The notes under the pieces are model-generated. The model was not told the DNA's origin. It saw nothing but the letters and a program-made list of their open reading frames with translations, and did not search any database. DNA of 55,508 nucleotides, filler included, from Basidiobolus ranarum (Eukaryota), in the NCBI GenBank assembly GCA_040143965.1. It is 4 parts of 4 records of this genome, joined end to end, with 100 filler letters (N's around TTAATTAATTAA, not from the genome) between each part and the next. Parts side by side here need not be neighbours in the genome. Positions count along the whole stretch, not along the records: positions 41,724 to 55,508 come from JASJQH010000460.1; 3 more parts are not named here. The stretch is one strand, 5' to 3'. Shown piece after piece: positions 12,241-54,986 of this stretch (position 1 is its first letter; every line of letters starts with the position of its first letter). A program made the translations under genes and the position numbers.

Positions 12241-13078
12241 GGATATTTGGCGTTTGCCCATCGGGATCTCTTGGGGTGGTGGATACTGAAATCAATGTTG
12301 ATGGATCCACCTATTTCTGTATCGAGTTAGGGAATTATCCAAAATGGGGTAATACTTCAGGGATATTCCAGGATCTGACGATAACAAACAATAACTCGTG
12401 AAATTGCTTGATAGGGCTTGTCCAATACAGGATCACAAAGTATAATTTACCTTATATATAAATTTTATTAGAATTTAAGTTTTGCAAGCCGAAGTATTTT
12501 TAAAAATTTTCACAAAGTTTCGAACCAAGATCCAAACAGGTTTTAAATTAAGTTCTAAATTTAAACTTTCCCGAAGATAATTTTAAAAATTTTAAAAAAA
12601 TTTGGAACAAAGATCTGAATTTGATTCAAATGTTAATAATAACCCATTTACTCCGAAACTCGCAAAGATGTTGAATTAGTTGGAGGCTTGTTTATAGACA
12701 TACTATTTTAAGTGCGACACTAATAATAGACGTTCTGACGTATAGACAAATTGCAAATACACATAATAAACCCAATAATATTATTCGAATTGCGACTTTA
12801 TAAATATGAAAAAAATTGCAATTTAGGCCTATACTAAGCTTTTTCATAGAATATATCAAACGACGGAGTACTCTTACCCGATAAAGTGACATTCTTTTCT
12901 CCATGCCTAGAGCAAATGACATTCACACGTTCTGGAAATATATTGCACTAATCGACAATAATATTAGCGCTACTATTCATATCGAGATTAGAATCACTAA
13001 AACTAGATATTTAGGTTATAAGTGGTGTTAGTAGTATATAAATGCAGTTTGGGGTAGGTATCATAACATCAACTGATA

Positions 13079-13825
13079 ATGCATTTTGTGATCCCATTAC
13101 TTGCTATTGCTAGTGTTGCCACAGCCTACGAAATTACTGATAGCTGCATCAACCAGTGTATTAGCACGGTTGGGAACGAATATGTGCCCGGCTTTTCATT
13201 GGAACAGGACAGTAGTACGTTTAAGGAGAGCCAGTATTGTTATTGCGATAAGAGCTACCCACAAGGCGTAAAACTCAACAACGATCTGACAAGTTGTTTT
13301 AGGGCGAATTGCAATCCCATTGCAATGATTGATTTCATAATGTTGAAGCCATTAATTTGCGCAGTAGTTGTGACCACTACGGAAGCTTCAACATCAAGAA
13401 CTACCGAGATTACTACATCTACTGAGTATAAGGAGACTACTACTACATCAGTATCAACTTCAAATTCAGAAACTACTGTACTTCCTACTGACTCTGAAAG
13501 CACTAAATCTCTGTCAACTACAGATACTACAGACACTCCAATATCAACAGAGACTACGGAGATTAACACGCTGACCGAGTCGACGGAGACTGATACTCCA
13601 GCATCGACCGAGACTATGGAGACTGACATGCCTACAGACGCTACGAAAACTAACACTCCAACATCAACAGAGAATACGGAGACCGACACTTCAACATCTA
13701 CGGAGATTACTACCACACCAGTACCAACTACAGACTCTGAAAGCACTCAATCTCAGTCAACTACAGATTCTACGGACGCTCCAATGTCAACAGAGAATAC
13801 GGAGACCGACACTTCAACATCTACG
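13079..13825 (+). CDS. Secreted Cys-rich domain plus Thr/Ser-rich mucin-like stalk (cell-wall protein), truncated at contig end
   Basis: Signal peptide MHFVIPLLAIASVATA; Cys-rich N-domain (CINQC..YCYCD..SCFRANC); repeated STENTETDT units; TATATAAA at about 13035. Confidence 0.8.
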
Positions 13826-13925
13826 NNNNNNNNNNNNNNNNNNNNNNNNNNNNNNNNNNNNNNNNNNNNTTAATTAATTAANNNNNNNNNNNNNNNNNNN
13901 NNNNNNNNNNNNNNNNNNNNNNNNN
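13826..13925. other. Artificial contig linker (N-run containing TTAATTAATTAA)
   Basis: 100 bp; the central 12-mer gives stop codons in all six frames. Confidence 0.99.
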
Positions 13926-14069
13926 GGATAGTGCCATATTGTTCCTTATAGTGTCCGATCAAGTGTTATAGGACCCAGCCATGGTAATTGACAGATCGCG
14001 CCAGATGGTGTGCTAGCAGGCTGGATCGAGCGGCACGATCTGACCTGGTCCGATGGAACAAGTCTAGCA

Positions 14070-15705
14070 ATGTTGCCTAATTTTCTATGCCAGGTTCAAC
14101 AGCTTATTTCACCGGTTTTAGCCAAGTTTGCATGCTCAAAATGCAGTTGTTGCTTTCAAGCTTGCATAAGTTTTTAGTTTTGATCCCTGTGGCTAATTTG
14201 TGTTATTCTATATGTGATAGTGGATCCAGCCTTGCTAAACACAACATTTAGTGCTTTAATTGTTGCTTGGCTCACTTGGAGTAGATCCTTAGCTATTGCA
14301 TGGTGCATTGAGTACATCATCCAATTTTGCAGATGGTGAAGCTGAATTTTGGTTTAAATAAAGTACAACAGCACCCTCACCAACTGCATCTAGTGCATAG
14401 TCATGACCTAAGAAGACTTTCCTTATTTCCATTGGTTTTAAGCTGGAAAACCAATCTTTCCTGTTTGACATATGCTAGGAAGCTCCTGACTCAATGTAAC
14501 ATGTTCTGAGTCTTCTTTATTAGGTACTGATAGGATAGACACAAATAGATGATCTCTATCAGTGCTTACTTGTTTTGCTTGTTACAATTTTAACTTTTTG
14601 GCAAAAATCCTATTTTTGCAGTTTTTGATTAAATGGCCTGGTTTGTTGCAATACTTGTAGATGATTGATAACCTATTAGGGGCACCATTATTAAAGCCTG
14701 TTTGATGCTTTACAGCTCTAAAAAGTAAATATTCTGCATTATTTTGTTGAAAATTTGATCTCCTTATTTCCTCATTCAATAGCCATGCACCAACATATTG
14801 CATTGTTAATAGCTCTGATCTTGATTCTAGAGCAGTTATGAGGTTCCCAAACTTGTCTGGTAGGCTCTCAAGTAATGTCATTACTAAGTCAACTTATTTA
14901 GAGGTGCCCCAATGGAAGAGAGCTGATTTCCCGTATTTTTTTGCCATTTTATATGACTAAACATAAAATCATCAAAATTTAAGTGAATTGAGAATAATTT
15001 TCACCTAAGATATAGCCTATTAGCCACACATTTAGTCTCATATAGTCACTCAAGTGTTTACCAAGCACTTTGGGTGTTTTTGGCTGACTGTATGTGCCTC
15101 AATTAAGAGTCTTTGATACGTAGACAAAGTGTAGAGAGTTCTTTCCTCTGCTTCTGGTGAAAGACAAGTATAGCTTCTGGTGGTCCCTTTTGCTCTCTTT
15201 CTTCCCCAGTTACAAATCCCCAAAGGTCCTTGTCTTCTAGCACCATTTGCATCTTTAACTTCCAAAGGCGAGAGTGTTCACCATCAAACTTCTCTGTAGA
15301 TGCAAAAACATTGGTTATAGTACCAGTAGACATACCTTTAACAGCTATCTTGGGGCTCACAATCTGATAAAAGTGTGTAGGGGACTTGCAAGTATTTTGG
15401 GCAAGATTTGAATTTGTGAATTAGACAATTGAGTTTTATTAAATTGAATATGTCCTATTCAATGGTTACAATGAAATAGAGCCATTGGATGTGCTTAGAT
15501 CATAACAAACATGCCTATAAAGCATGGGTGAAAATCTGAGGTGATTTGAGAAAATAGTGAAAATTGGTAAAAGTGATCAAATGGATATATCTGTCAATTA
15601 GAGCAATAAACGCCAGTTTTTGAATCACAGAATTGAGTACTAAATAATCAGATTATGAATAAACTAACAACTACATAATGAGCTGCTATTTACCTAATTT
15701 CAACA
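14070..15705 (-). mobile_element. Ty1/copia element A: 5' LTR (15365-15705), PBS, gag, protease; truncated before integrase
   Basis: LTR TGTTGAAATTAGG...TTTTATCA on the minus strand. Gag WKLKMQMVLEDKDLWG, LLESLPDKF, zinc-knuckle remnant KYCNKPGHLIKNC. Protease DSGAS-HMS. Stops and frameshifts present. Confidence 0.9.
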
Positions 15706-18700
15706 TAATTCACAAATTCAAATCTTGTCCAAAAACACTTTTATCAGGGTATGAGCATCAAGCTAGCTGTTAAAGGAATGTCTACCAGTACTATTACCAA
15801 TGTTTTTGCATCCCCAGAGAAGTTTGATGGCAAAGACTTTCACCTTTGGAAGTTCAAGAAGCAAATGGTGCTAGAAGACCAGGACCTCCGGGGATTTATT
15901 ACATGAGAAGAAATAGAGCCAAAGGGACCAACAGAAGCTATCCTTGCCTTTCACCAGAAGCAGAGGAAAGCACTCTGTACACTTTGTATTAATCTCAGAG
16001 ACTCTCAATTGAGGCACATACAATCAGTCAGAAGTATCCAAAATGCTTGTCAAACACTTGAGGGACTATATGAGACCAAAGGTCTGGCTAATAGGCTATA
16101 TCTTAGGTGAAAATTATTCACAATTCAGGTGAATTCTGATGATTATGAGCTTAATCATATATATTGGATAAAATCTATGGCTGATCAGCTCTCATCCATT
16201 GGGGCACCTCTAAATGAAGATGACTTAGTAATGACACTACTTGGGAGGCTGCCAGAAGTGTTCATGAACCTCATATATTTCTTAAAATCAAGATCAGTGC
16301 CATCAACAATCAAATATCTTGATGCTGGACTTTTGAATGAGGTATTAAGGAGATCTCATTCCCAGCAAAATATTGCAGAATAGGCATTTTTTGGTGCTGT
16401 AAAACATCTAACAGGCTTCAATAACGGTGCCCCTAAGAGGAAATCAATTATCTCAAGTATTGCAAGAAACTAGGCCATTTAATCAAAGATTATAGAAAAA
16501 CAACTTTTGCCATAAAGCTAAGATTGGAACAAGCATATCAAGTAAGCTCAGATAGGGATCATATATTTGTGTCTGCCCTATCAGTAACTACTAAGAAGAA
16601 TCAGAAGCGTAGTACAACAATTTTCAAGCTTCTCAGCATATGTCAAACCAGAAAATTTGGTTTCCTAGCTTAAAACCAATCCAAACAAGGAAAGTCTACT
16701 TGAGTGATTATTTTGCACTAGATGCAGTTGGTAAGGGTACAATTGTGCTCAATTTAGACCAAAATTCAGCTACACCATCTGCAAAATTAGATGCTGTACT
16801 AAATGTACCAAATATAGCCAAGAATCTACTCTCTGTACGCCTGGTAAGTACTCAAGGACTAAATTTAGTGTTCAGCCAGGCTGGATGCACCATCACAGTT
16901 CAGGATAATAGCAAGATAGCTACTGGGATCAAAACCCCACACATACACAATATGGAAATTAACAAATTGAATTTGGCCAATGCAACCTTGGCCAAAACTG
17001 GTGACATATGTTGTCAAATTTAGCATATAAGATTAGGCCATATTGGGGAACAATAAGCTTGTTTCAAGTTTAGAAAGTGAAAATATCACTAAATTGGATC
17101 ATTGTTAAGATTGCATATATGGAAAACTTCACAGACAGACATTTTCATGCTCTGTAGAGATCTAATCCGCTCCATATTCTGTCCTGATTCATTCTGTCCT
17201 ATGTGGGCCCTTGAAACATGTCTCACTAAATGGGAAAAGGTACTTTACGATCTTTATTGCTGATAAAGCAAGATAGACTTTGGTATTCTTTCTCAAATCA
17301 AAATCCAAACCCTTACTACACTCAAGCACAACAAAGCAATGGTGGAGAAAGCATCAGCACAACAAATAAGGGTATTAAGGAGTGAACATGGTGCACAATA
17401 CTGCTCAAAAGACTTTACTAGTTTTTTTTGTTCTAATCATGGGATTAAGCAGAAAACTTCAATACCTTACACTCCACAGCAAAATGGAGTGGCAGAATGT
17501 GGGAATAGGACCTTAGTAGATGGCAGGATCAATGTTACATGATCAAAAGTTATATTACCAATAATGGGCGGTATCTGTCTCCACTGCAGTCTATATTGAA
17601 AACAGATGCCCAATAGGATAGCTACAAAATTCTACTCCATTTGAAGCCCTATATGGATCAAATCCAAGTGTAGATCATCTCAGGATCTGTGGTTGCACGG
17701 CATATTGCCTAATTCCAGCCAAAAACACTTTCAATTGGAACCCAAGAGCAGAAACTACATATTTCTTGTTAACTGTGCAGGATCTGATGCCTACAGACTT
17801 TTCCATATGGAAAATCAGTAGTTAATAAAGTGCAGGGATGTGATTTTTGAAGAGAAAGGAAATTTGGTACTGTGATGGATCTAAGGCCAACACACCATTT
17901 GATACCAAAAATCAGAAGTTAATTTAGTGCAGAGATGTGAATTTCAATCAAAAGGAGATTTTTCACCTCAAATCATAGTTCTTGATCCAGAAAACACAAT
18001 CAGCACTATTCAAGAACTGTCTGACACAATTCCAGCTGTATCTGAGCATATTTGACCAAAATTCCAGTCCTGATTACATGAGAGAATGATTCAGGGCCCA
18101 GATGATCATCCAGAAGAGGAAATACACCAGGCCACTAGTGGAACACTTCTAATAATGATACATATGCTTGGGCCGCATTAATGACATACCCCAGACTCTA
18201 GATCAAGCTCCGCTGTGTCCAGAATCAAAGTTATAGGAAAAAGCAATGTCTGTTGAGTTTTTCTTTAGTTCGGGACAATGAAACATGGGTTTGAAGTCTG
18301 CTAATGTCAGGGAGAAAGCCAATAGGTTGAAAATAGGTCTACAAAGTCAAGAACCAAGCTGATGAATCCATACAAAGGTACAAAGCAAGAATAGTTGCAA
18401 AAGGTGATTCCAAGACTGCAGGAGTTGATTTATTGAAACCTTTGCTCCTGTAGCTAAGTTTAGCTCAATTAGATCAATCCTAGCACTCTCAGCCATCCAT
18501 AACCATGATTTACATCAAGTGGATGTAAAAACAGCCTTTCCAAATTGATCTCTAAAAGAAGTGATCTATGTGGAGCAACCAGATGGGTTTATTGACCCAA
18601 AACATCTTGATGTGGTCTGCAAACTGCACAAATTGCTATATGGACACAAGTAAGCACCCTAGGCATGGAACAACAAGTTAGATACCTACTTGGAATAACT

Positions 18701-21039: not shown

Positions 21040-22533
21040 AATTTTTTTGTTTGGGTTGCCCAATATAGGTAATATGGTTTTACTGATGTAATATTGATCT
21101 TGCCTTCTCCAACATGGTCATATTAGCGCATTCAGCCATTCCACTATGCTGTGGAGTATAAGTTGCAGTAGTGTGTTGCTTATTTCCATGTTTAGAGCAA
21201 TAGAAATGAAGTCTTTTGAGCAATATTCTGCACCAATTTTACCCATGACTACCCTGATTTTTTATGCTGATTCTTTCTCTACCATTGCTTTGTAGTAGTT
21301 GAAGAAGTTGAGGCTTTACAGTTGATTTAAGAAAAAATACCCAAGTATCTCCTGTTTTCTCATCAATTAAGTTCATAAAGTACCTTGTGCCATCTAGTGA
21401 GACATTTTTTATGTGCCCACATAGCTCAAAATGCATCAAGGCAAGATTCTGAGTAGAGTAGATCTCTCCCAGGGCTGAAAATGGTGGTCTTTGTGGTTTC
21501 CCGGATATTTGTCCATCCCAGGTATCCATTGTTTGATCCCAGCAGCTAATTTGGTATCATATATGCACTGTTGCTCAACACAAATTATAGTCCTTGAGCG
21601 GTTGCTTGGCTTACTAGCAGGAGATACCTAGCAATGTTTGGTGCAGGGCATACTTCATCCATGGTTGCAGTTGATGCAGCTTAGCTTGGGTTTTATTATA
21701 GCACAACTTTGTGCTTACCAGCTGCATCAATCACAAAGTCATCAGCTAGTTATACTCTTCTATTTTGGATTAGTGTTAAGCTGGAAACCATTCTTTTTTG
21801 TTTTACATATACTGCAAAGCCCTTATATCCATGCTTCTGAATCTTTTTAAGTAGTTACTCTCAGGGCAAACACAAATACACAATCCCTAGCTGTGCTCAC
21901 TTTTTTTGCTTGTTTCCATTTAGGCATTTGGCAAAAGTCCTTTGTCTGCAATTCTTAATTGAATGGCCTGATTTCTTGCAATACCTGAAGACAATTGGTT
22001 TCCTATTAGGGGCATCATTATTGAAGCCTTTTAGACATTCTACAGCCCAAAAAAATACCTGATATGCATTATTTTGCTGAGAAATAGATCTTCTAAATTC
22101 CATAGTCAAAATCCTGGCTCCAACATATCAGACTTCTCTGTCAATGCAAACACATTGGTAATAGCGCTGGTAGACACTCCATTAATGGCTAGCTTGGGGC
22201 TCAAAAATGGATAAAAATGTTTAGGGAATATGAATATGCAGAGGTCAAGAAATGACTTTGTAAATTGGACACCTAAATTTTATTGAATAGACTATGTCCT
22301 ATTGGTACCTTACTATGAAATGGCACTATCATATAAGTTTGGATCAGAACAAACATGGCTGATAAGCAAGAGTGAGATAATGAGATGATTTGGAGAAGAT
22401 ATGAGAAAGTAGCGAAAACAGGCAAACATGATCTAATTGATATTTTTATTTATTAAAGCAATAAGCACAGATCTTTGAATGTCAGAATTGAGCATTAAAG
22501 ATCATGATATGAACAAATCAACTACTAAATAAT
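21040..22533 (-). mobile_element. Older, deleted copia relic (LTR about 22210-22533, gag and integrase fragments)
   Basis: Diverged LTR copy; FRYCKKSGHSIKNC; HFELCGHIKNVSLDGTRYFMNLIDEKT; PQHSGMAECANMT. Confidence 0.8.
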
Positions 22534-25500
22534 TGATCAAAGTGTTTAGGGGATTTGGAAGTGTTTTGGACAAGATTTGGATTTGTGAATTGGACACTTA
22601 AGTTTTATTGAACTGAATATGTCCTCTTTATAGTTTACAATAAAATTAGACTATTAAATGTGCTTAGATCATAGCAAACATGCCTGTTAAGCATGGGTAC
22701 AACTTTGAGATGATTTGGAGAAGTTCTGGGATAATAGTGAAAATTGGTAAAAGTGATCTAATCAATATTTCTATCAATTAGAGCAATAAACACCTGTTTT
22801 TGAATTACAGAATTGAGTGCTACATAATCAGAATATGTATAAACTAACTAATAAATAATGAGTTGCTATTTACCTAATTTCAACATTCCCACTCAACTAA
22901 TTATTTTGTATTTCTCTTAAACCTGACTTATATGTTAATAATTCAAATTGTGCTTTAACGAAAGGTTTGGTTATGATATCAGCTATCATTTCTTCAGTAG
23001 GGCAATAGACAAGTTCAATTATATCATTCTCTATTGCTTCTCTAACAAAATGATGCCTAGTATCTATGTGTTTTGTTCTAACATAAAATGTAGTGTTTTT
23101 AGCTAATGAAATACATCTTTGTTTATCTGCAAACAATCTAATAGTATGTTTTTGCATGTCTCCTAAGTCTGTAAATATCTTCCTTAACCACATAGCTTCT
23201 TGTGTAGTAGCAAAGGCAGCCATATACTCTGCTTCTGTAGTGGAAATTGCTCTGGCTGGTTGCTTCTACTATTCCAAGTTATGGCTCCATTACCATAAAT
23301 AAAAGTTTACCCAGTTGTTGATCTTCTATCATCAAGGTTTCTTCCTCAGTCTAAATCACTGTAGCCTTCAAATTTTGTGCATCAGGAGCAGCAGAGTATT
23401 CTAGAACTAGATCTGCAGTTCCTCTCAAATACCTGAATATTTGTTTTACTGCAGTTTTGTGCACGGATCCTGGATTTTTGAGGTAGAGGCTGACAGTTCT
23501 CACTGCCACAGCAATGTCTCAATGTGTTCCAACCATTGTATACATTAAACAACCAGCCATGGTTTGATAAGGGAGCTCCTGGCTTTGATTTGAGTCATTT
23601 TAGGCCAAATCAGATAAAATTTTAATTAGTTTCATATTGGGATTCATTGATATTGATACAGGCTTGCTATTCTCCATGTTGAAGCATTTTAGGATGTCAA
23701 GGATGAATCTAGACTGCTTCAGCATGATTTTCTGATTGGGTTTATCTCTCTAAATTTGAATTCCAAGAAAATAACTTAATCACCCATATCATTCATCTGA
23801 AATTGGTTTGATAAGCTACTTTTTGTCTGATTAAGTGCTTTGAGATCATTTGTGGCTATGATTGAGTCATCCACATATAGTGCCAAGATAAGGATCCTAT
23901 TTCTGGTTGTTTTGATGTAAATAATGTTACCTGCTGTGCATTTTTGGAATTCCAGAGTTTCCAAATAGGTATCTATCTTGTTGTACCATGCCCTGGGTGC
24001 TTGCTTGAGTCCATACAGCAATATATGCCATTTACAGACCATATCAGGATGTTTTGGGTCAACAAATCTATCTGGTTACTCCATATAGATCTCTTCTTCT
24101 AGATTTCCATTAGGAAAGGCTGTTTTTACATACATTCAATCTAGATCAAGGTTATTGATGGCTGAGAGTGCCAGAATTGATCTAATGGAGCTAAACTTAG
24201 CTACTGGAGCAAACGTTTCATTAAAATCAACTCCTGGAGTCTGGAATAGCTTTTTGCAACTAATCTTGCTTTGTACATTACTATGGTCCAATCAGTTTGG
24301 TTTGTGACTTTGTAGACCCATTTGCAACCAATTGGCTTTCTCCCTGATGGAAGAGGACTTAAAACCCACTTTTTATTGTCCTGAAGTGAAGAAAACTCAT
24401 CTGACATTGCTTTTTCCCATTATTTGATTCTGGACACTCCAGAGCCTGATCTAGAGTCTGTGGCTTGGCACACAATGCTGCATAAGCGTATACATCATCA
24501 TTGGAATAGTTCCATCAGTTTCCTAGCTTATTTCTCCTTCTGGATGATCTTCAGGGTCCTGAATTACCATTTGATGTAATTGGGACTCATATTTTGGTCA
24601 AATAGGGCTCAGATACAGCTGGAATTTGTCAGACACTTCCTGATGGTGCTGATTGTGTTTTCTGGATCAAGAACTGTGACTTGAGATGAAAAATTTGCTT
24701 TTTCATCAGAAATCACATCCTGGCACTTGATTAAATTCTGATTTTAGGTATGAAGCAGTGTGTAGGTCATGGATCCATTACAGTAACCAAGAAATACACA
24801 TTTTCTGCATTTGGGTTCCAATTTTGAACATTTTTGAACTGGAATTAGACAATATTCTATGTAACCAAAGATCCTGAGAATTATCCACACTTGGTTTTGA
24901 TCCCTATAGGGCTTCAAATGAAGTAGAATTTTGTACAATCTTGTTGGGCATCAGTTTTTGCTATAGACTGCTGTGGAGACAGATTTAGCCCTATATTGGC
25001 AATCTAACTTTTGATCATGGAACATTGATCTTGTCATCTCCACTATGGTCCTATTAGCACATTCTGCAAATCCATTTTGCTGTGGAGTATAGAGTACAGT
25101 AGTTTGTTACTTAATTCCATGTTTAGAGCAAAAACCAGCAAAGTCTTTAGAGCAGGATTCTCTACCATTATCACTCCTAAGTACCCTTTTTTTTGTGCTG
25201 ATTCTTTCTCTAACACTACTTTGTAGTGCTTGAATGTAGCTAAGGCTTCAGATTTTGATCTGAGGAAGAAAACCCAAGTATATCTTGTTTTGTCATCAAT
25301 AAAGGTCATAAAATATCTTATCCCACCCCATGAAACATTTGTCATGGGCCCACATAGGTCAGATTGAATCAGGGCAAAATTCTGAGTGGATTTGATCTCT
25401 CCAGAGCTTGAAAATTGCTGTTTGTGATGTTTTCCATTTATGCAACCTTTGCACATATCCAATTTAGTGTTATTTTTAATTTCCAAGCCTGAAACAAGCT

Positions 25501-27730: not shown

Positions 27731-27830
27731 NNNNNNNNNNNNNNNNNNNNNNNNNNNNNNNNNNNNNNNNNNNNTTAATTAATTAANNNNNNNNNNNNNN
27801 NNNNNNNNNNNNNNNNNNNNNNNNNNNNNN
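27731..27830. other. Artificial contig linker
   Basis: N-run with TTAATTAATTAA, 100 bp. Confidence 0.99.
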
Positions 27831-28068: not shown

Positions 28069-28417
28069 TGTTGAAATTAGCATTGCCTAAACACCTATAT
28101 AGTCATATATAGCTTAGTACTTAGTTATCTTATAATTTGCCAAGATATTATCCATTATTCTCAATCGGAATCTACTTGGAATATTTTTACCAACTTAGAT
28201 GTTCTCAGATATATAGATTTTTCTAACTTGTGCTAGAAGCCCCAAACTTTGCACACATGCTCCTGGGACCTTCCTTAACACATTCTACATGTTAGTCTGT
28301 TTACATCTTGACAAAACTATAAATGTCAACTTTCTACTCAATAAATCAATAAGTGAAAAACCACCAATTCCTCTAATTCTCCAAACCACTTCCAACAGGC
28401 TCCCAAATACTTTAACA
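28069..28417 (+). mobile_element. Solo LTR, family 2 (349 bp), with 5-bp TSD GGTAC
   Basis: TGTTGAAATTAGC...TACTTTAACA; GGTAC at 28064-28068 and 28418-28422. Homologous to 48064-48733, 54067-54400 and 54658-54986. Confidence 0.92.
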
Positions 28418-41623: not shown

Positions 41624-41723
41624 NNNNNNNNNNNNNNNNNNNNNNNNNNNNNNNNNNNNNNNNNNNNTTAATTAATTAANNNNNNNNNNNNNNNNNNNNN
41701 NNNNNNNNNNNNNNNNNNNNNNN
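41624..41723. other. Artificial contig linker
   Basis: N-run with TTAATTAATTAA, 100 bp. Confidence 0.99.
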
Positions 41724-43799: not shown

Positions 43800-44690
43800 C
43801 TTGGTCACCTATTTTGTGACAGAATGTGGCTCATAGCCTGTAACTATTCACACACAGTGCTATCTGGTATGTTTAACGACAAAGAAGTAGTTAGCGAGTA
43901 AACTTAAGCGTATCTAAAAACCAAACATCTTCCGGCACATATTTTGATTAGGCGTTTAGAATGAATGAGTAACTAACCACCCACATTGTGGCTGGGCGTA
44001 TTTAATAACCAGTAGATATTCACAGATTGTATGGAGGTGTGTTTAACGGTAAGGAATCAGCTAACAAGTAGACTTCGGCATATTTAATAACCAAGTATCT
44101 TACAACATATATTTTAATTAGGCGCCAAAAACTACCAAGTAACTAACCACCCACATTGTGGTAGGGCGTATTTCATAGCAAGTAACTATCCGCACACAAG
44201 ACTTTAAGCATATTTGATAGTCAAATATCTTACGATGTAATATCAACGCAACTAGTCACTCATACTGTGACTACATGTGCTTCATAGCCAGTAGCCTTTC
44301 ATACATAGCACTACGTGGTATGTTTGACGACAAACAAGCAATTAGTGAGTAGACATGATTATCTAATATCCAAGTATATTGTCATTACACATATTTTGAT
44401 TCGGCGCTTATAATCAATCGAGTACTAACCCACCCCCATTGTAGTTGGGCGTATATTTTAGCAAGTAACTATCCACACACAATACTTCATTGCATGTTAA
44501 ACGGCAAAGAATCAACCAGCAAGTAAACTTTAGAATATCTCATAGCCAGGTCACATTTTGATTGAACGCCTGAAATAGTTGAACATCTAGCCACACACAT
44601 TGTGGTTGGGCGTGCTCGGTAGCCAGTAACTAACCGCAAATAGTACGTTATAGCACATATGATAACTACGAGGTGAGTAAACCTCAATGG
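43800..44690. repeat. Degenerate higher-order tandem repeat (about 42-bp monomers, about 170-bp units, about 450-bp duplication)
   Basis: AACTAACCACCCACATTGTGG..GGGCGTA at about 43971, 44141, 44424 and 44587; CACATATTTTGATTAGGCG-like at about 43936, 44105, 44388 and 44552; GTCAC-N7-GTGAC at 43804 and 44255. Confidence 0.85.
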
Positions 44691-46549: not shown

Positions 46550-46787
46550 TATTAGGTTTAACACTATCTAATTGTTGGGAATTCTCAGGGAGAATGGAAG
46601 TGAAATGGATTGTGATAAGAAAGTATGGTTTTCACATGTTAGTTTATCAGTTGGAACTTTGGTATTTATACTTTTGTCAGAAATACCATAAACTAATAAT
46701 AGGGTCATGGTGAAAAACATGTCAGGATACTGTGTACAAAGTCTGGGGGCTTTAGGACAACATTGAATTTTTTACTAAATTTCAACA
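46550..46787 (-). mobile_element. Degenerate LTR related to family 2
   Basis: Ends TTTCAACA at 46787; contains TGTGTACAAAGTCTGGGGGCTTTAGGACAA, similar to family-2 TGTGCACAAAGTTTGGGG. Left boundary approximate. Confidence 0.55.
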
Positions 46788-46939
46788 TCCTGAATATCTT
46801 TAATCAGAATCAATTAGATACAAAATTAATTCTAAGTACAAAACTAATTTCTCCCATAATCTGATATCTGCTTAAATATATATGAAATAATAGGTGTATA
46901 TTTCAACACTAATCAAAATAAGAAAAGAAGAGAAATAGT

Positions 46940-48000
46940 TCTACATTTTGCAAGTTACTCCACACAAGGATCAGAGAAGAGATACCCAAGCTCATATTGG
47001 GATGGACCTTCTATCATATGAGCTTAAATGATTCTCAACACTACTTTTTTAATCAAAGATTCCTGATATACATTGACCACAATGCTCTAAAAGCTATATT
47101 TAATATGCTAAATTGAATTGGCAGAATGGCATGAGGGAATATTATGCTACTAGAATAAAAATTTTCAATATGCCATCAAAAGGGTAAATATAATCTAGCA
47201 CTTCCATTATCCTTCTTAGTGGAAACCTACAAAGAAAAACATATTCTTGTATGTATAACAATACAAGCAAGAGGTTTAATAAGTAATGTGCAAGGACTAC
47301 TATTAAAATTTTTTTGTGCAGTCTTACAACTTCTAAGGATTGGGAATATAGCAGATAATGCTCAACAAAGTTATCAGGAAGATTGTATCATATCTTGGTA
47401 AAAAATTCATTAAAGGTGTTATTAAACTACACTTATAGGAACAATCAAATCAAAAAGCTGCTTCAGAGGCAAAATCACAAGTATAGGTGTTCAAAATTTA
47501 TCAGCAAGGTGATTCAAGAGCAGGGCACATATAGTATCTTGTAAAGCAGCAATGCAGTGTAGCACAGCTCTATAAGATGGTATGAGAAGTAGTACCAGAG
47601 TGTTCACAGTATGTGCAATACTAAAATAAGCCACCAACAGGTTATGGTGGGCAAAAACATATCCCATGACATAGCCCACTGAAAGTGCTACAAATTAACA
47701 TCATGGGCCTTGTAAAGCAAGCAAAACTGAGAAACCAATTTATATTAGTCTATCTGGACTAAGTAACACATGGCCCTTGTCAAGATCCTACAATGAAAGA
47801 ATAACAGATGTAATCATAGATTACCTTTTGATAGAATTGTTTCAAAATATAGATGTTCAAATCATCTAATAAGTCACCAAGGAATAAAACTCATGAGTAT
47901 CATCCTTGCAATCATACTATAAAGACTTAATATCAGGACAGATTTTAGTACAGCATATTGACCTAAAATAATAGCAGATTAGAGCATTTATATTAGAATG
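46940..48000 (+). mobile_element. Ty3/gypsy pol relic (RNaseH then integrase), heavily degraded
   Basis: Frameshifted EKRYPS..., QRFLIYIDHNALKAIF, IGRMA*GNIMLLE, ICHQKG; then NQFILVYLD and FSTAY*PK. RNaseH-before-integrase order indicates gypsy. Confidence 0.65.
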
Positions 48001-48063
48001 CTAATTGTTTGTTTTAACCAGTCATGCAAGAAGTTGCTGAGTGGAGTATGGAACTGAGGAAGA

Positions 48064-48733
48064 TGTTGAAATTGTTGGAGGATCTTGACATAATGGGGGT
48101 AGACTTTGAGTATTAGAAGCAACTTATGATAGTGTGTTTTAGTTAGTTTATTCTCAAGAGTATATGGTGACTTATATAGTAGAAAAGTAAATCAATTGTT
48201 TGAGATATTCAGGAGTTTGTGTAATAAGATATAATAGATAAGTGGGGGTAATAAGACATACTTGTTATATAGATATAGAGATATTCCTATTTAGAATATA
48301 GGGGCTATAGATACATTGCTTTCTGTTTCTGATATATGTATCATAACTAAAGTTAACTATGATGTTGAATAAAGATTTATTATCCAACAGAAATTAGCAT
48401 TGCCTTAACACCTATATTGTCATATATAGTTTAGTATTTAGTTATTTTATATTTAATCAAGATATTACCCATTTTTCTCAATCCAAATCTACTTAGAGTA
48501 TTTTTTCCAACTTAGAAGTTCTCAGATATATAGATTTTTCAAACTTGTGCTAGAAGCCCCAAGCTTTGCACCAATGTTCCTAGGACCTTCTGTAACACAC
48601 TCTACATGTTAGTTTGTTTACATCTTGACAAATATTTAAATGTCAACTTTCTACTCAATCAATCAATAAGTGAGAACCACTAATTTCTCTAATTCTCCAA
48701 ACCACTTCCAACAGGCTCCCAAATACTTTAATA
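48064..48733 (+). mobile_element. Family-2 solo LTR with TSD GAAGA, interrupted by a nested LTR
   Basis: TGTTGAAAT[insert]TAGCATTGCC...TACTTTAATA; GAAGA at 48059-48063 and 48734-48738. Confidence 0.9.
48073..48389. mobile_element. Family-3 solo LTR (317 bp) with TSD GAAAT, nested in the family-2 LTR
   Basis: Termini TGTTGGA...TCCAACA; GAAAT at 48068-48072 and 48390-48394. Confidence 0.88.
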
Positions 48734-48754
48734 GAAGATTCCATTAGTAAATTA

Positions 48755-49036
48755 TGTTGAAATTATTTAGGGAGAAATATTGGTCTGGCCAGGAATTGAA
48801 CCTGGGACCTCCTTCACTCTAGCAAGGTGCTCTAACCACTGAGCTACCAGTCCTTGTATGCTATGCCTATATTGCTAGGGAACCTTAACCTAGTCTGTAA
48901 ATGTATGGTACTTTGGCATTTCAGCTATACAAGCAACTGATTGGCCTTAGACTTTGTGTTCAGATGCAGTCACCATACTCCATATTTTTCTCTTTAGGAA
49001 CTACTGCTTGTACCACAAGTCACCAGACTTTCAACA
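48755..49036. mobile_element. 282-bp LTR-like element with TSD AATTA, containing a tRNA-like sequence
   Basis: Perfect 8-bp inverted termini TGTTGAAA/TTTCAACA; AATTA at 48750-48754 and 49037-49041. Confidence 0.88.
48781..48853 (-). tRNA. tRNA-like (pseudo-tRNA) sequence inside an LTR; nominal anticodon AGA, short variable loop
   Basis: GGACTGGTAGCTCAGTGGTTAGAGCACCTTGCTAGAGTGAAGGAGGTCCCAGGTTCAATTCCTGGCCAGACCA: 73 nt, A box, B box, intact D and T arms, one acceptor-stem and one anticodon-stem mismatch. Confidence 0.75.
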
Positions 49037-49149
49037 AATTATTCATCATGATACAAAGAAACTGATTATTCATCAGTATACTTATTGTTTGGTTATAGCT
49101 TGACTGATCTAGTTGACTGGCTAACACAAGAATCACAATTGTTTGAAGA

Positions 49150-54657: not shown

Positions 54658-54986
54658 TGTTGAAATTAACATAGCCTAAACATCAATATGTCAAATATAG
54701 CTTAGTATTTAGTTGTTCCATGTTTTCACCAAGATGTCACCTGCTATTCTTATTCAAAACTTACTTAAAAGTTCTTAGATATGTGGACTTTTCAAACTTG
54801 TCCTAGAGGCCCCAAACTTTGCACACATGTACCTGGAACCTTCCTTAGCACACTCTACAGGTTTGTTTGTTCACTCCTTGATAAAACTATAAATGTCGAC
54901 TTTCCACTCAGTAAATCAACAAATAAAAACCACCAATTCTTCTGGTGCTCCATATCACTTCCAACAATTTCCAAACTACTTCAACA
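54658..54986 (+). mobile_element. Family-2 solo LTR, near-perfect TSD (TGCTC/TACTC)
   Basis: TGTTGAAATTAAC...TACTTCAACA; similar to 28069-28417. Confidence 0.85.

Follow-up and report, generated by a model that had tools for sequence, protein, structure and literature searches.

Does the tRNA-like sequence in this part of the genome of Basidiobolus ranarum, an early-diverging fungus outside the Dikarya, represent a working tRNA gene, a tRNA-derived piece that came to lie in a retrotransposon remnant, or a module with which an LTR integrated? The window, i.e. the whole stretch of DNA that was analysed (55.5 kb), contains three blocks of the form N44-TTAATTAATTAA-N44 (13826-13925, 27731-27830 and 41624-41723), which join four contigs and which we take to be six-frame stop linkers placed by convention. 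The linkers lie about 13.9 kb apart and the four contigs are nearly equal and descending in size, with the element under study located on the fourth. As the window is a chain of four contigs, distances and neighbourhood across the linkers are meaningless.

The outer unit was delimited by direct reading and by script. It spans 48755-49036 (282 bp, no strand assigned), has TGTTGAAA...TTTCAACA ends and is flanked by two copies of AATTA at 48750-48754 and 49037-49041 (no strand assigned, both read directly and script-checked). The unit opens with TGTTGAAATT at 48755 and closes with ACTTTCAACA at 49036, which gives inverted termini of 8 bp. The first 11 bases on the plus strand (TGTTGAAATTA, 48755-48765) are identical to the 5' (U3-side) ends of the LTRs of the resident copia element and of a second family (family 2), and the opposite terminus (...ACTTTCAACA, plus strand, 49026-49036) has TGTTGAAAGTC as its reverse complement (script-checked). 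An earlier reading, made from the sequence only, had described a 282-bp unit with these termini and a perfect AATTA duplication, and both the direct reading and the script agreed with it. The same reading had stated that the first 10 bases equal the termini of LTR families 1 and 2 in this window; the identity stood, and extends over 11 bases, with the families lying partly on other contigs.

We compared these features with chance. Pairs of the type TGTTG...CAACA, 100-7000 bp apart and with a perfect 5-bp duplication, were found four times in the window, whereas the same scan of 200 mononucleotide shuffles yielded a mean of 0.53 and a maximum of 3. One of the four pairs (12296-16308) crosses a contig linker and represents the chance level, as expected; the remaining three are compact units of 282-336 bp. 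Similarly, TGTTGAAATT occurs eight times in the window versus 0.64 expected, a number that was reached in 0 of 100 shuffles. The combination of 8-bp inverted ends and a perfect 5-bp duplication at 48755-49036 is far above chance.

Such units are regular in this genome. Besides 48755-49036, and allowing slightly degenerate ends in the resulting count of six, the window holds five solo LTRs with TGTTG-type ends and 5-bp duplications (four perfect, one 4/5): three of family 2, at 28069-28417 (duplication GGTAC), 48064-48733 (plus strand, GAAGA, 21 bp from the element) and 54658-54986 (TGCTC/TACTC, the 4/5 case), one at 46573-46908 (no strand assigned, CTAAT, on the same contig as the element), and one at 48073-48389 (GAAAT), which is nested in 48064-48733, 9 bp inside its 5' end. 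Solo LTRs with 5-bp duplications are thus a recurrent element of this genome, 48755-49036 being one of them, and since the five others share its TGTTG termini and 5-bp duplications, it is a solo LTR, presumably of the resident copia-type system. The unit integrated as a whole, by way of 5-bp staggered cuts, and its ends match the resident copia-type LTRs. The proposal that it is an LTR-type insertion was thus supported by the TGTTG...CAACA ends, the 5-bp duplication and the 11-base match to the 5' ends of the copia and family-2 LTRs. Four LTR insertions (46573-46908, 48064-48733, the nested 48073-48389 and 48755-49036) lie within 2.5 kb, between 46573 and 49036, and the three other solo LTRs of this cluster lie, without exception, downstream of the tRNA-like unit, within 2.2 kb. 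Such clustering could reflect either targeting or nesting in junk DNA. The stretch 46909-48063 was considered as a dead pol fragment, a candidate that found no support, since 13 short frames on the flanks of the LTR cluster gave no Pfam match.

The copia elements themselves are represented by two degenerate copies on the second contig, with gag, Pol_BBD, rve and RVT_2 domains and many stops; no intact copia was seen in the window. Their LTR starts with TGTTGAAATTAG and ends with ...CTTAACA, and is followed by a leader beginning with TTATCAGG.., which presumably resembles the complement of the anticodon arm of initiator tRNA-Met. On this contig (14300-27000) the two copies stand in opposite orientations and are accompanied by additional copies of the LTR; near 22192-22816 there is a tandem duplication of the LTR, of 325 bp.

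The element at 48755-49036 is single-copy within the 55.5-kb window, where neither a second LTR nor a PBS or PPT belonging to it was seen and where it exists as a solo LTR only. No LTR resembling its 183-bp non-tRNA body was found among the eight LTR copies of the window (local alignment in both orientations, 200 shuffles per comparison, best z 1.5). As the body is unlike the other LTRs, nothing points to a parent family from which the tRNA is missing, 55 kb being a small sample.

Inside the unit, ARAGORN called a tRNA on the minus strand at 48781-48853, with anticodon AGA. Rfam assigned the same 73 nt to the tRNA family (RF00005) with 57.8 bits and an E-value of 6.1e-10, well over the gathering score of 29, and the minimum-energy fold is a cloverleaf, of a stability that does not exceed that of shuffles (z -0.24). 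A box A-like motif (TAGCTCAGTGG, 48836-48846) and a box B-like motif (GGTTCAATTCC, 48792-48802), both on the minus strand, were identified by scans with generic consensus patterns; each pattern occurs once in the whole window, and no second tRNA-like sequence was detected there by Rfam (E<=10) or by the box A and box B scans. The module lies wholly within the LTR, its 3' end 26 bp and its 5' end 183 bp from the respective termini. The cloverleaf of 73 nt with A and B boxes at 26 bp from one terminus, as originally described, was therefore recovered by ARAGORN, Rfam, the fold and the pattern scans between them.

The cloverleaf fold and the Rfam score could be taken to indicate a genuine tRNA gene that is flanked by LTR-like motifs by chance. 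We consider this scarcely credible. Eukaryotic tRNA-Ser has a long variable arm, and hence the nominal AGA (Ser) anticodon on a class-I body with a short variable arm contradicts an assignment as tRNA-Ser. In addition, the Rfam alignment shows a non-standard pair in each of two stems, those of the acceptor and the anticodon; the 481 nt that follow downstream on the strand of the module contain no stretch of at least four Ts (T4+); and the 8-bp inverted ends with the perfect 5-bp duplication are not a product of chance. The long variable arm, the intact stems and the close T-run terminator of a functional nuclear tRNA-Ser are thus all missing from the module, and it is unlikely to be a working tRNA. 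This is in line with the sequence-only reading, which had pointed to the conflict between anticodon and variable loop and to the lacking T4 terminator, and had judged a translating tRNA improbable; the class-I body with AGA, the two broken pairs and the T4+-free downstream region bear out all of these points.

The position of the tRNA-like part relative to the duplication distinguishes this locus from a familiar arrangement. The Ty1 delta and Ty3 sigma elements of yeast are solo LTRs with a 5-bp duplication near tRNA genes; there, integration is targeted to the tRNA gene, which itself stays outside the LTR. The locus resembles these in that a solo LTR with a 5-bp duplication is found close to a tRNA-type Pol III unit, but here the tRNA-like part is enclosed by the duplication, at distances of 26 and 183 bp from the two ends of the unit. 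The duplication surrounds the entire unit, and the tRNA-like part must therefore have been present in the LTR at integration or have been added afterwards; an addition of the latter kind, being younger than an outer duplication that is still perfect, should carry marks of its own. No convincing secondary duplication or tail was found around the tRNA-like part.

The second of these possibilities, a one-off event in which a tRNA pseudogene or a tRNA-derived SINE inserted into this solo LTR after its integration, so that other copies of the LTR would be without it, appears improbable to us. The 6-mers TAGGGA and ATATTG are present on both sides of the tRNA-like part, and the window offers a single copy of the LTR for comparison. 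However, the order of the two 6-mers is swapped, a similar sharing of 6-mers was obtained for 551 of 2000 random flank pairs (28%), an A-rich or simple-repeat tail is absent, and the older outer duplication is still perfect, next to which a younger insertion should have left clean marks. Nor does the unit as a whole behave as a tRNA-derived SINE (SINE2). It has in common with these elements a tRNA-derived head, the A and B boxes that make up an internal Pol III promoter, and its nature as a non-coding mobile element. SINEs, however, are without TG..CA inverted ends, carry a LINE-like or A-rich tail, have duplications of variable length and are moved by LINE enzymes, whereas 48755-49036 has LTR ends, a 5-bp duplication and no tail. 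Neither a tail nor a flanking duplication of its own was found for the tRNA-like part, TG..CA ends are present, and the flanking 6-mers are at chance level.

A closer parallel is provided by Helenus (TRIMp3), a group of miniature LTR retrotransposons whose LTRs contain a Pol III promoter of tRNA origin (Kojima 2024, PMC10886601). The analogy drawn in the sequence-only reading with a TRIM that has tRNA-like sequence in its LTRs proved correct, as such elements are described in the parts of that paper on which we draw. According to these parts, a Helenus element has two LTRs that enclose a short non-coding interior, complete with PBS and PPT, and measures 311-1263 bp in total; the tRNA-derived sequence of the LTR retains conserved motifs for box A (TRGCY..YGG) and for box B (GGTTC); target duplications measure 4-6 bp, and 5 bp in fungal families; and many families are left only as solo LTRs (PMC10886601). 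Mobilisation of the fungal families by copia was inferred there from PBS types in common, the commonest primer type of both fungal copia and Helenus being initiator tRNA-Met, and members of the group are mispredicted as tRNA-Thr-AGT, Ser-AGA and the like, with isotypes that disagree (PMC10886601). The unit at 48755-49036 shares most of these traits: a sequence derived from a tRNA, complete with A and B boxes, that lies wholly within the LTR, TG..CA ends with a 5-bp duplication, a probable copia-type partner system (here degenerate copia with the same LTR 5' end), survival as a solo LTR, and a non-functional tRNA call of the 'Ser-AGA'/'Thr-AGT' type, with AGA in this case. It differs in its host, Basidiobolus belonging to a lineage that is absent from Table 1 of that paper, and in that Helenus comprises two-LTR families whereas a solo LTR alone is seen here, so that the comparison concerns described traits and not consensus sequences. 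Comparable designs are known from Cassandra of plants and Ajax of nemerteans, non-autonomous LTR retrotransposons, each LTR of which contains a Pol III small-RNA gene as a module (PMC10886601). In these two the module derives from 5S rRNA, here from a tRNA; in Cassandra, moreover, the Pol III terminators are conserved and transcripts are proven, features of which neither was seen here.

We therefore lean, with moderate confidence, towards a Helenus/TRIMp3-type solo LTR in Basidiobolus, left behind after LTR-LTR recombination and carrying a tRNA-derived module, the likeness being one of described traits. The element probably adds a new member to this already described kind, from a host lineage new to it. 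Its parent would have been a short non-autonomous element with the structure LTR-PBS-PPT-LTR, copied in trans by the reverse transcriptase and integrase of copia. In such an element the role of the tRNA-like part would be that of a promoter, not of a tRNA in translation: its A and B boxes would recruit TFIIIC, TFIIIB and RNA polymerase III, and transcription of the element would begin in the upstream LTR, at the 5' end of the tRNA-like part, and continue through the interior into the downstream LTR without meeting a T4 stop, a read-through that would supply the terminal repeat needed for strand transfer. For Helenus itself, Pol III transcription is stated to be unvalidated in the parts of the paper used here (PMC10886601).

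The model of Pol III read-through makes a prediction, namely that the sense strand must be without T4 stops. Over the full 282 bp the tRNA-sense strand indeed has no T4+ run, whereas the opposite strand has a T5 run; 856 of 5410 random 282-nt windows (16%) are likewise free of T4, and this property weakly suggests that the tRNA-like part is in sense orientation. Around the tRNA-like sequence the TTTT-free stretch on the minus strand continues from 49255 down to 48187 (1068 nt), about the longest of 780 gaps on both strands (median 95, 99th percentile 710, maximum 1072), and this could be a coincidence or a trace of Pol III read-through.

The termini hint at the reverse. In the oriented copia LTR and family 2 the U3-side 5' end is TGTTGAAATTA in 6/6 copies, and this U3-type sequence is matched by the plus-strand end of the element in 11 of 11 bases and by the other end in 9 of 11, which weakly favours an antisense position of the tRNA-like part in the LTR, at 26 bp from its U3 edge. 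In that orientation it could not drive the element's own RNA. The hint depends on two bases, and the T4 argument counterbalances it. An antisense position would fit an ordinary Pol II-driven LTR, of a copia or a TRIM, in which a tRNA-derived piece, acquired in an ancestor, is carried along without a promoter role; the piece might stem from an old SINE insertion or from template switching, and perhaps lies antisense near the U3 edge. The stems of the tRNA-like part are already decaying, and partial tRNA similarity is noted for 'not a few' non-TRIM LTRs of Repbase in the parts of the paper that we cite (PMC10886601), both of which agree with such a passenger. Against it, the A and B boxes are intact, the tRNA-sense strand of the whole unit is free of T4 while the T5 run is on the opposite strand, and the orientation hangs on two bases. 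We regard a passenger as unlikely, though by no means negligible. A bolder variant of the antisense arrangement is that the tRNA-like unit might serve as a portable TFIIIC/Pol III landing pad that steers later LTR insertions.

With respect to the preferred Helenus-type reading, the tRNA-like part was also considered as the element's own primer mimic, as had been suggested earlier for this locus. This part of the proposal did not survive comparison with the leaders of the resident copia elements: the complementarity of the tRNA-like part to three copia leader/PBS regions was no better than that of shuffles, of which 151, 352 and 185 of 500, respectively, scored at least as high. In the same vein, no complementarity to the own tRNA-like sequence for priming is reported for Helenus in the sections of the paper considered here (PMC10886601).

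We searched for relatives outside the window in several public collections. Viral contigs gave 0 related matches and prokaryote genomes 0 matches to the junction pattern, both being collections in which Basidiobolus is not expected. A 54-aa open frame of the LTR body, used as a proxy for other copies, gave no candidate in a protein collection. In metagenomes, where Basidiobolus is not expected either, a 21-mer from the T-arm and acceptor matched three contigs of one assembly (L001:50-81, L002:11256-11287 and L003:3921-3952). These contigs were rejected as LTR relatives, the similarity being confined to 33 nt at 91% at the tRNA-like 3' end and the remainder unrelated. ARAGORN called no tRNA in the three contigs, and the repeat that they have in common looks, by eye, like a tRNA-derived SINE. 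The scanned collections hold little or no Basidiobolus DNA and the misses therefore say little. A literature search on TRIMp3 yielded no relevant publication beyond PMC10886601, and one on retrotransposons, tRNA genes and the genome assembly of Basidiobolus had no report of such elements among the matches listed.

The kind of element, an LTR with a tRNA module, is already described and is not new. It is plausible, however, that the family is undescribed in this fungal lineage. Helenus comprises 113 families in rust fungi and some in Agaricus, Coprinopsis and Amylostereum, and in Table 1 of the paper it is listed, among fungi, only for Pucciniales and a few Agaricomycetes (PMC10886601). The screening behind these numbers, as far as the parts used here describe it, took Repbase LTR entries as seeds and was extended to related genomes (PMC10886601), and early-diverging fungi were thus probably outside it. 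We think it quite possible, with somewhat less than even confidence, that Basidiobolus has a tRNA-promoter LTR family of its own, of the TRIMp3/Helenus type but of an origin separate from that of the rust and agaric families, with two-LTR copies elsewhere and read by Pol III. If a whole family exists, the range of Pol III-promoter LTR retrotransposons would reach from the Dikarya to an early-diverging phylum, Basidiobolomycota (NCBI taxonomy), and the repeated capture of small-RNA promoters by LTR elements would gain support; apart from this, a single solo LTR of a kind already described is nothing out of the ordinary. According to the parts of the paper cited here, Helenus-type elements inflate tRNA gene predictions in rusts (PMC10886601), and calls of 'tRNA-Ser(AGA)' with a short variable arm in Basidiobolus assemblies are therefore suspect.

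With regard to the origin of the window, the family-2 LTR at 48064-48733 is 89-95% identical to its relative on the third contig, which indicates that the third and fourth contigs come from one genome. The third contig also carries an intron-less ammonium transporter gene, of which the product is 90% identical to that of Basidiobolus meristosporus and 81-82% to that of B. ranarum; the next matches are at most 70% identical, and no identical protein is among the matches listed. A rust fungus as the source, which the host range of Helenus might have suggested, is rejected on the strength of this protein. On the first contig, an open frame that runs into the contig end (13067-13825, repeat family D14) is rich in Ser/Thr codons, contains internal repeats spaced by 243 bp and has no Pfam match. 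On the fourth contig, 4-5 copies of a tandem-like repeat of about 160-170 bp, with a core of the type CCACCCACATTGTGG (repeat families D9 and D10), are located at 43866-44648.
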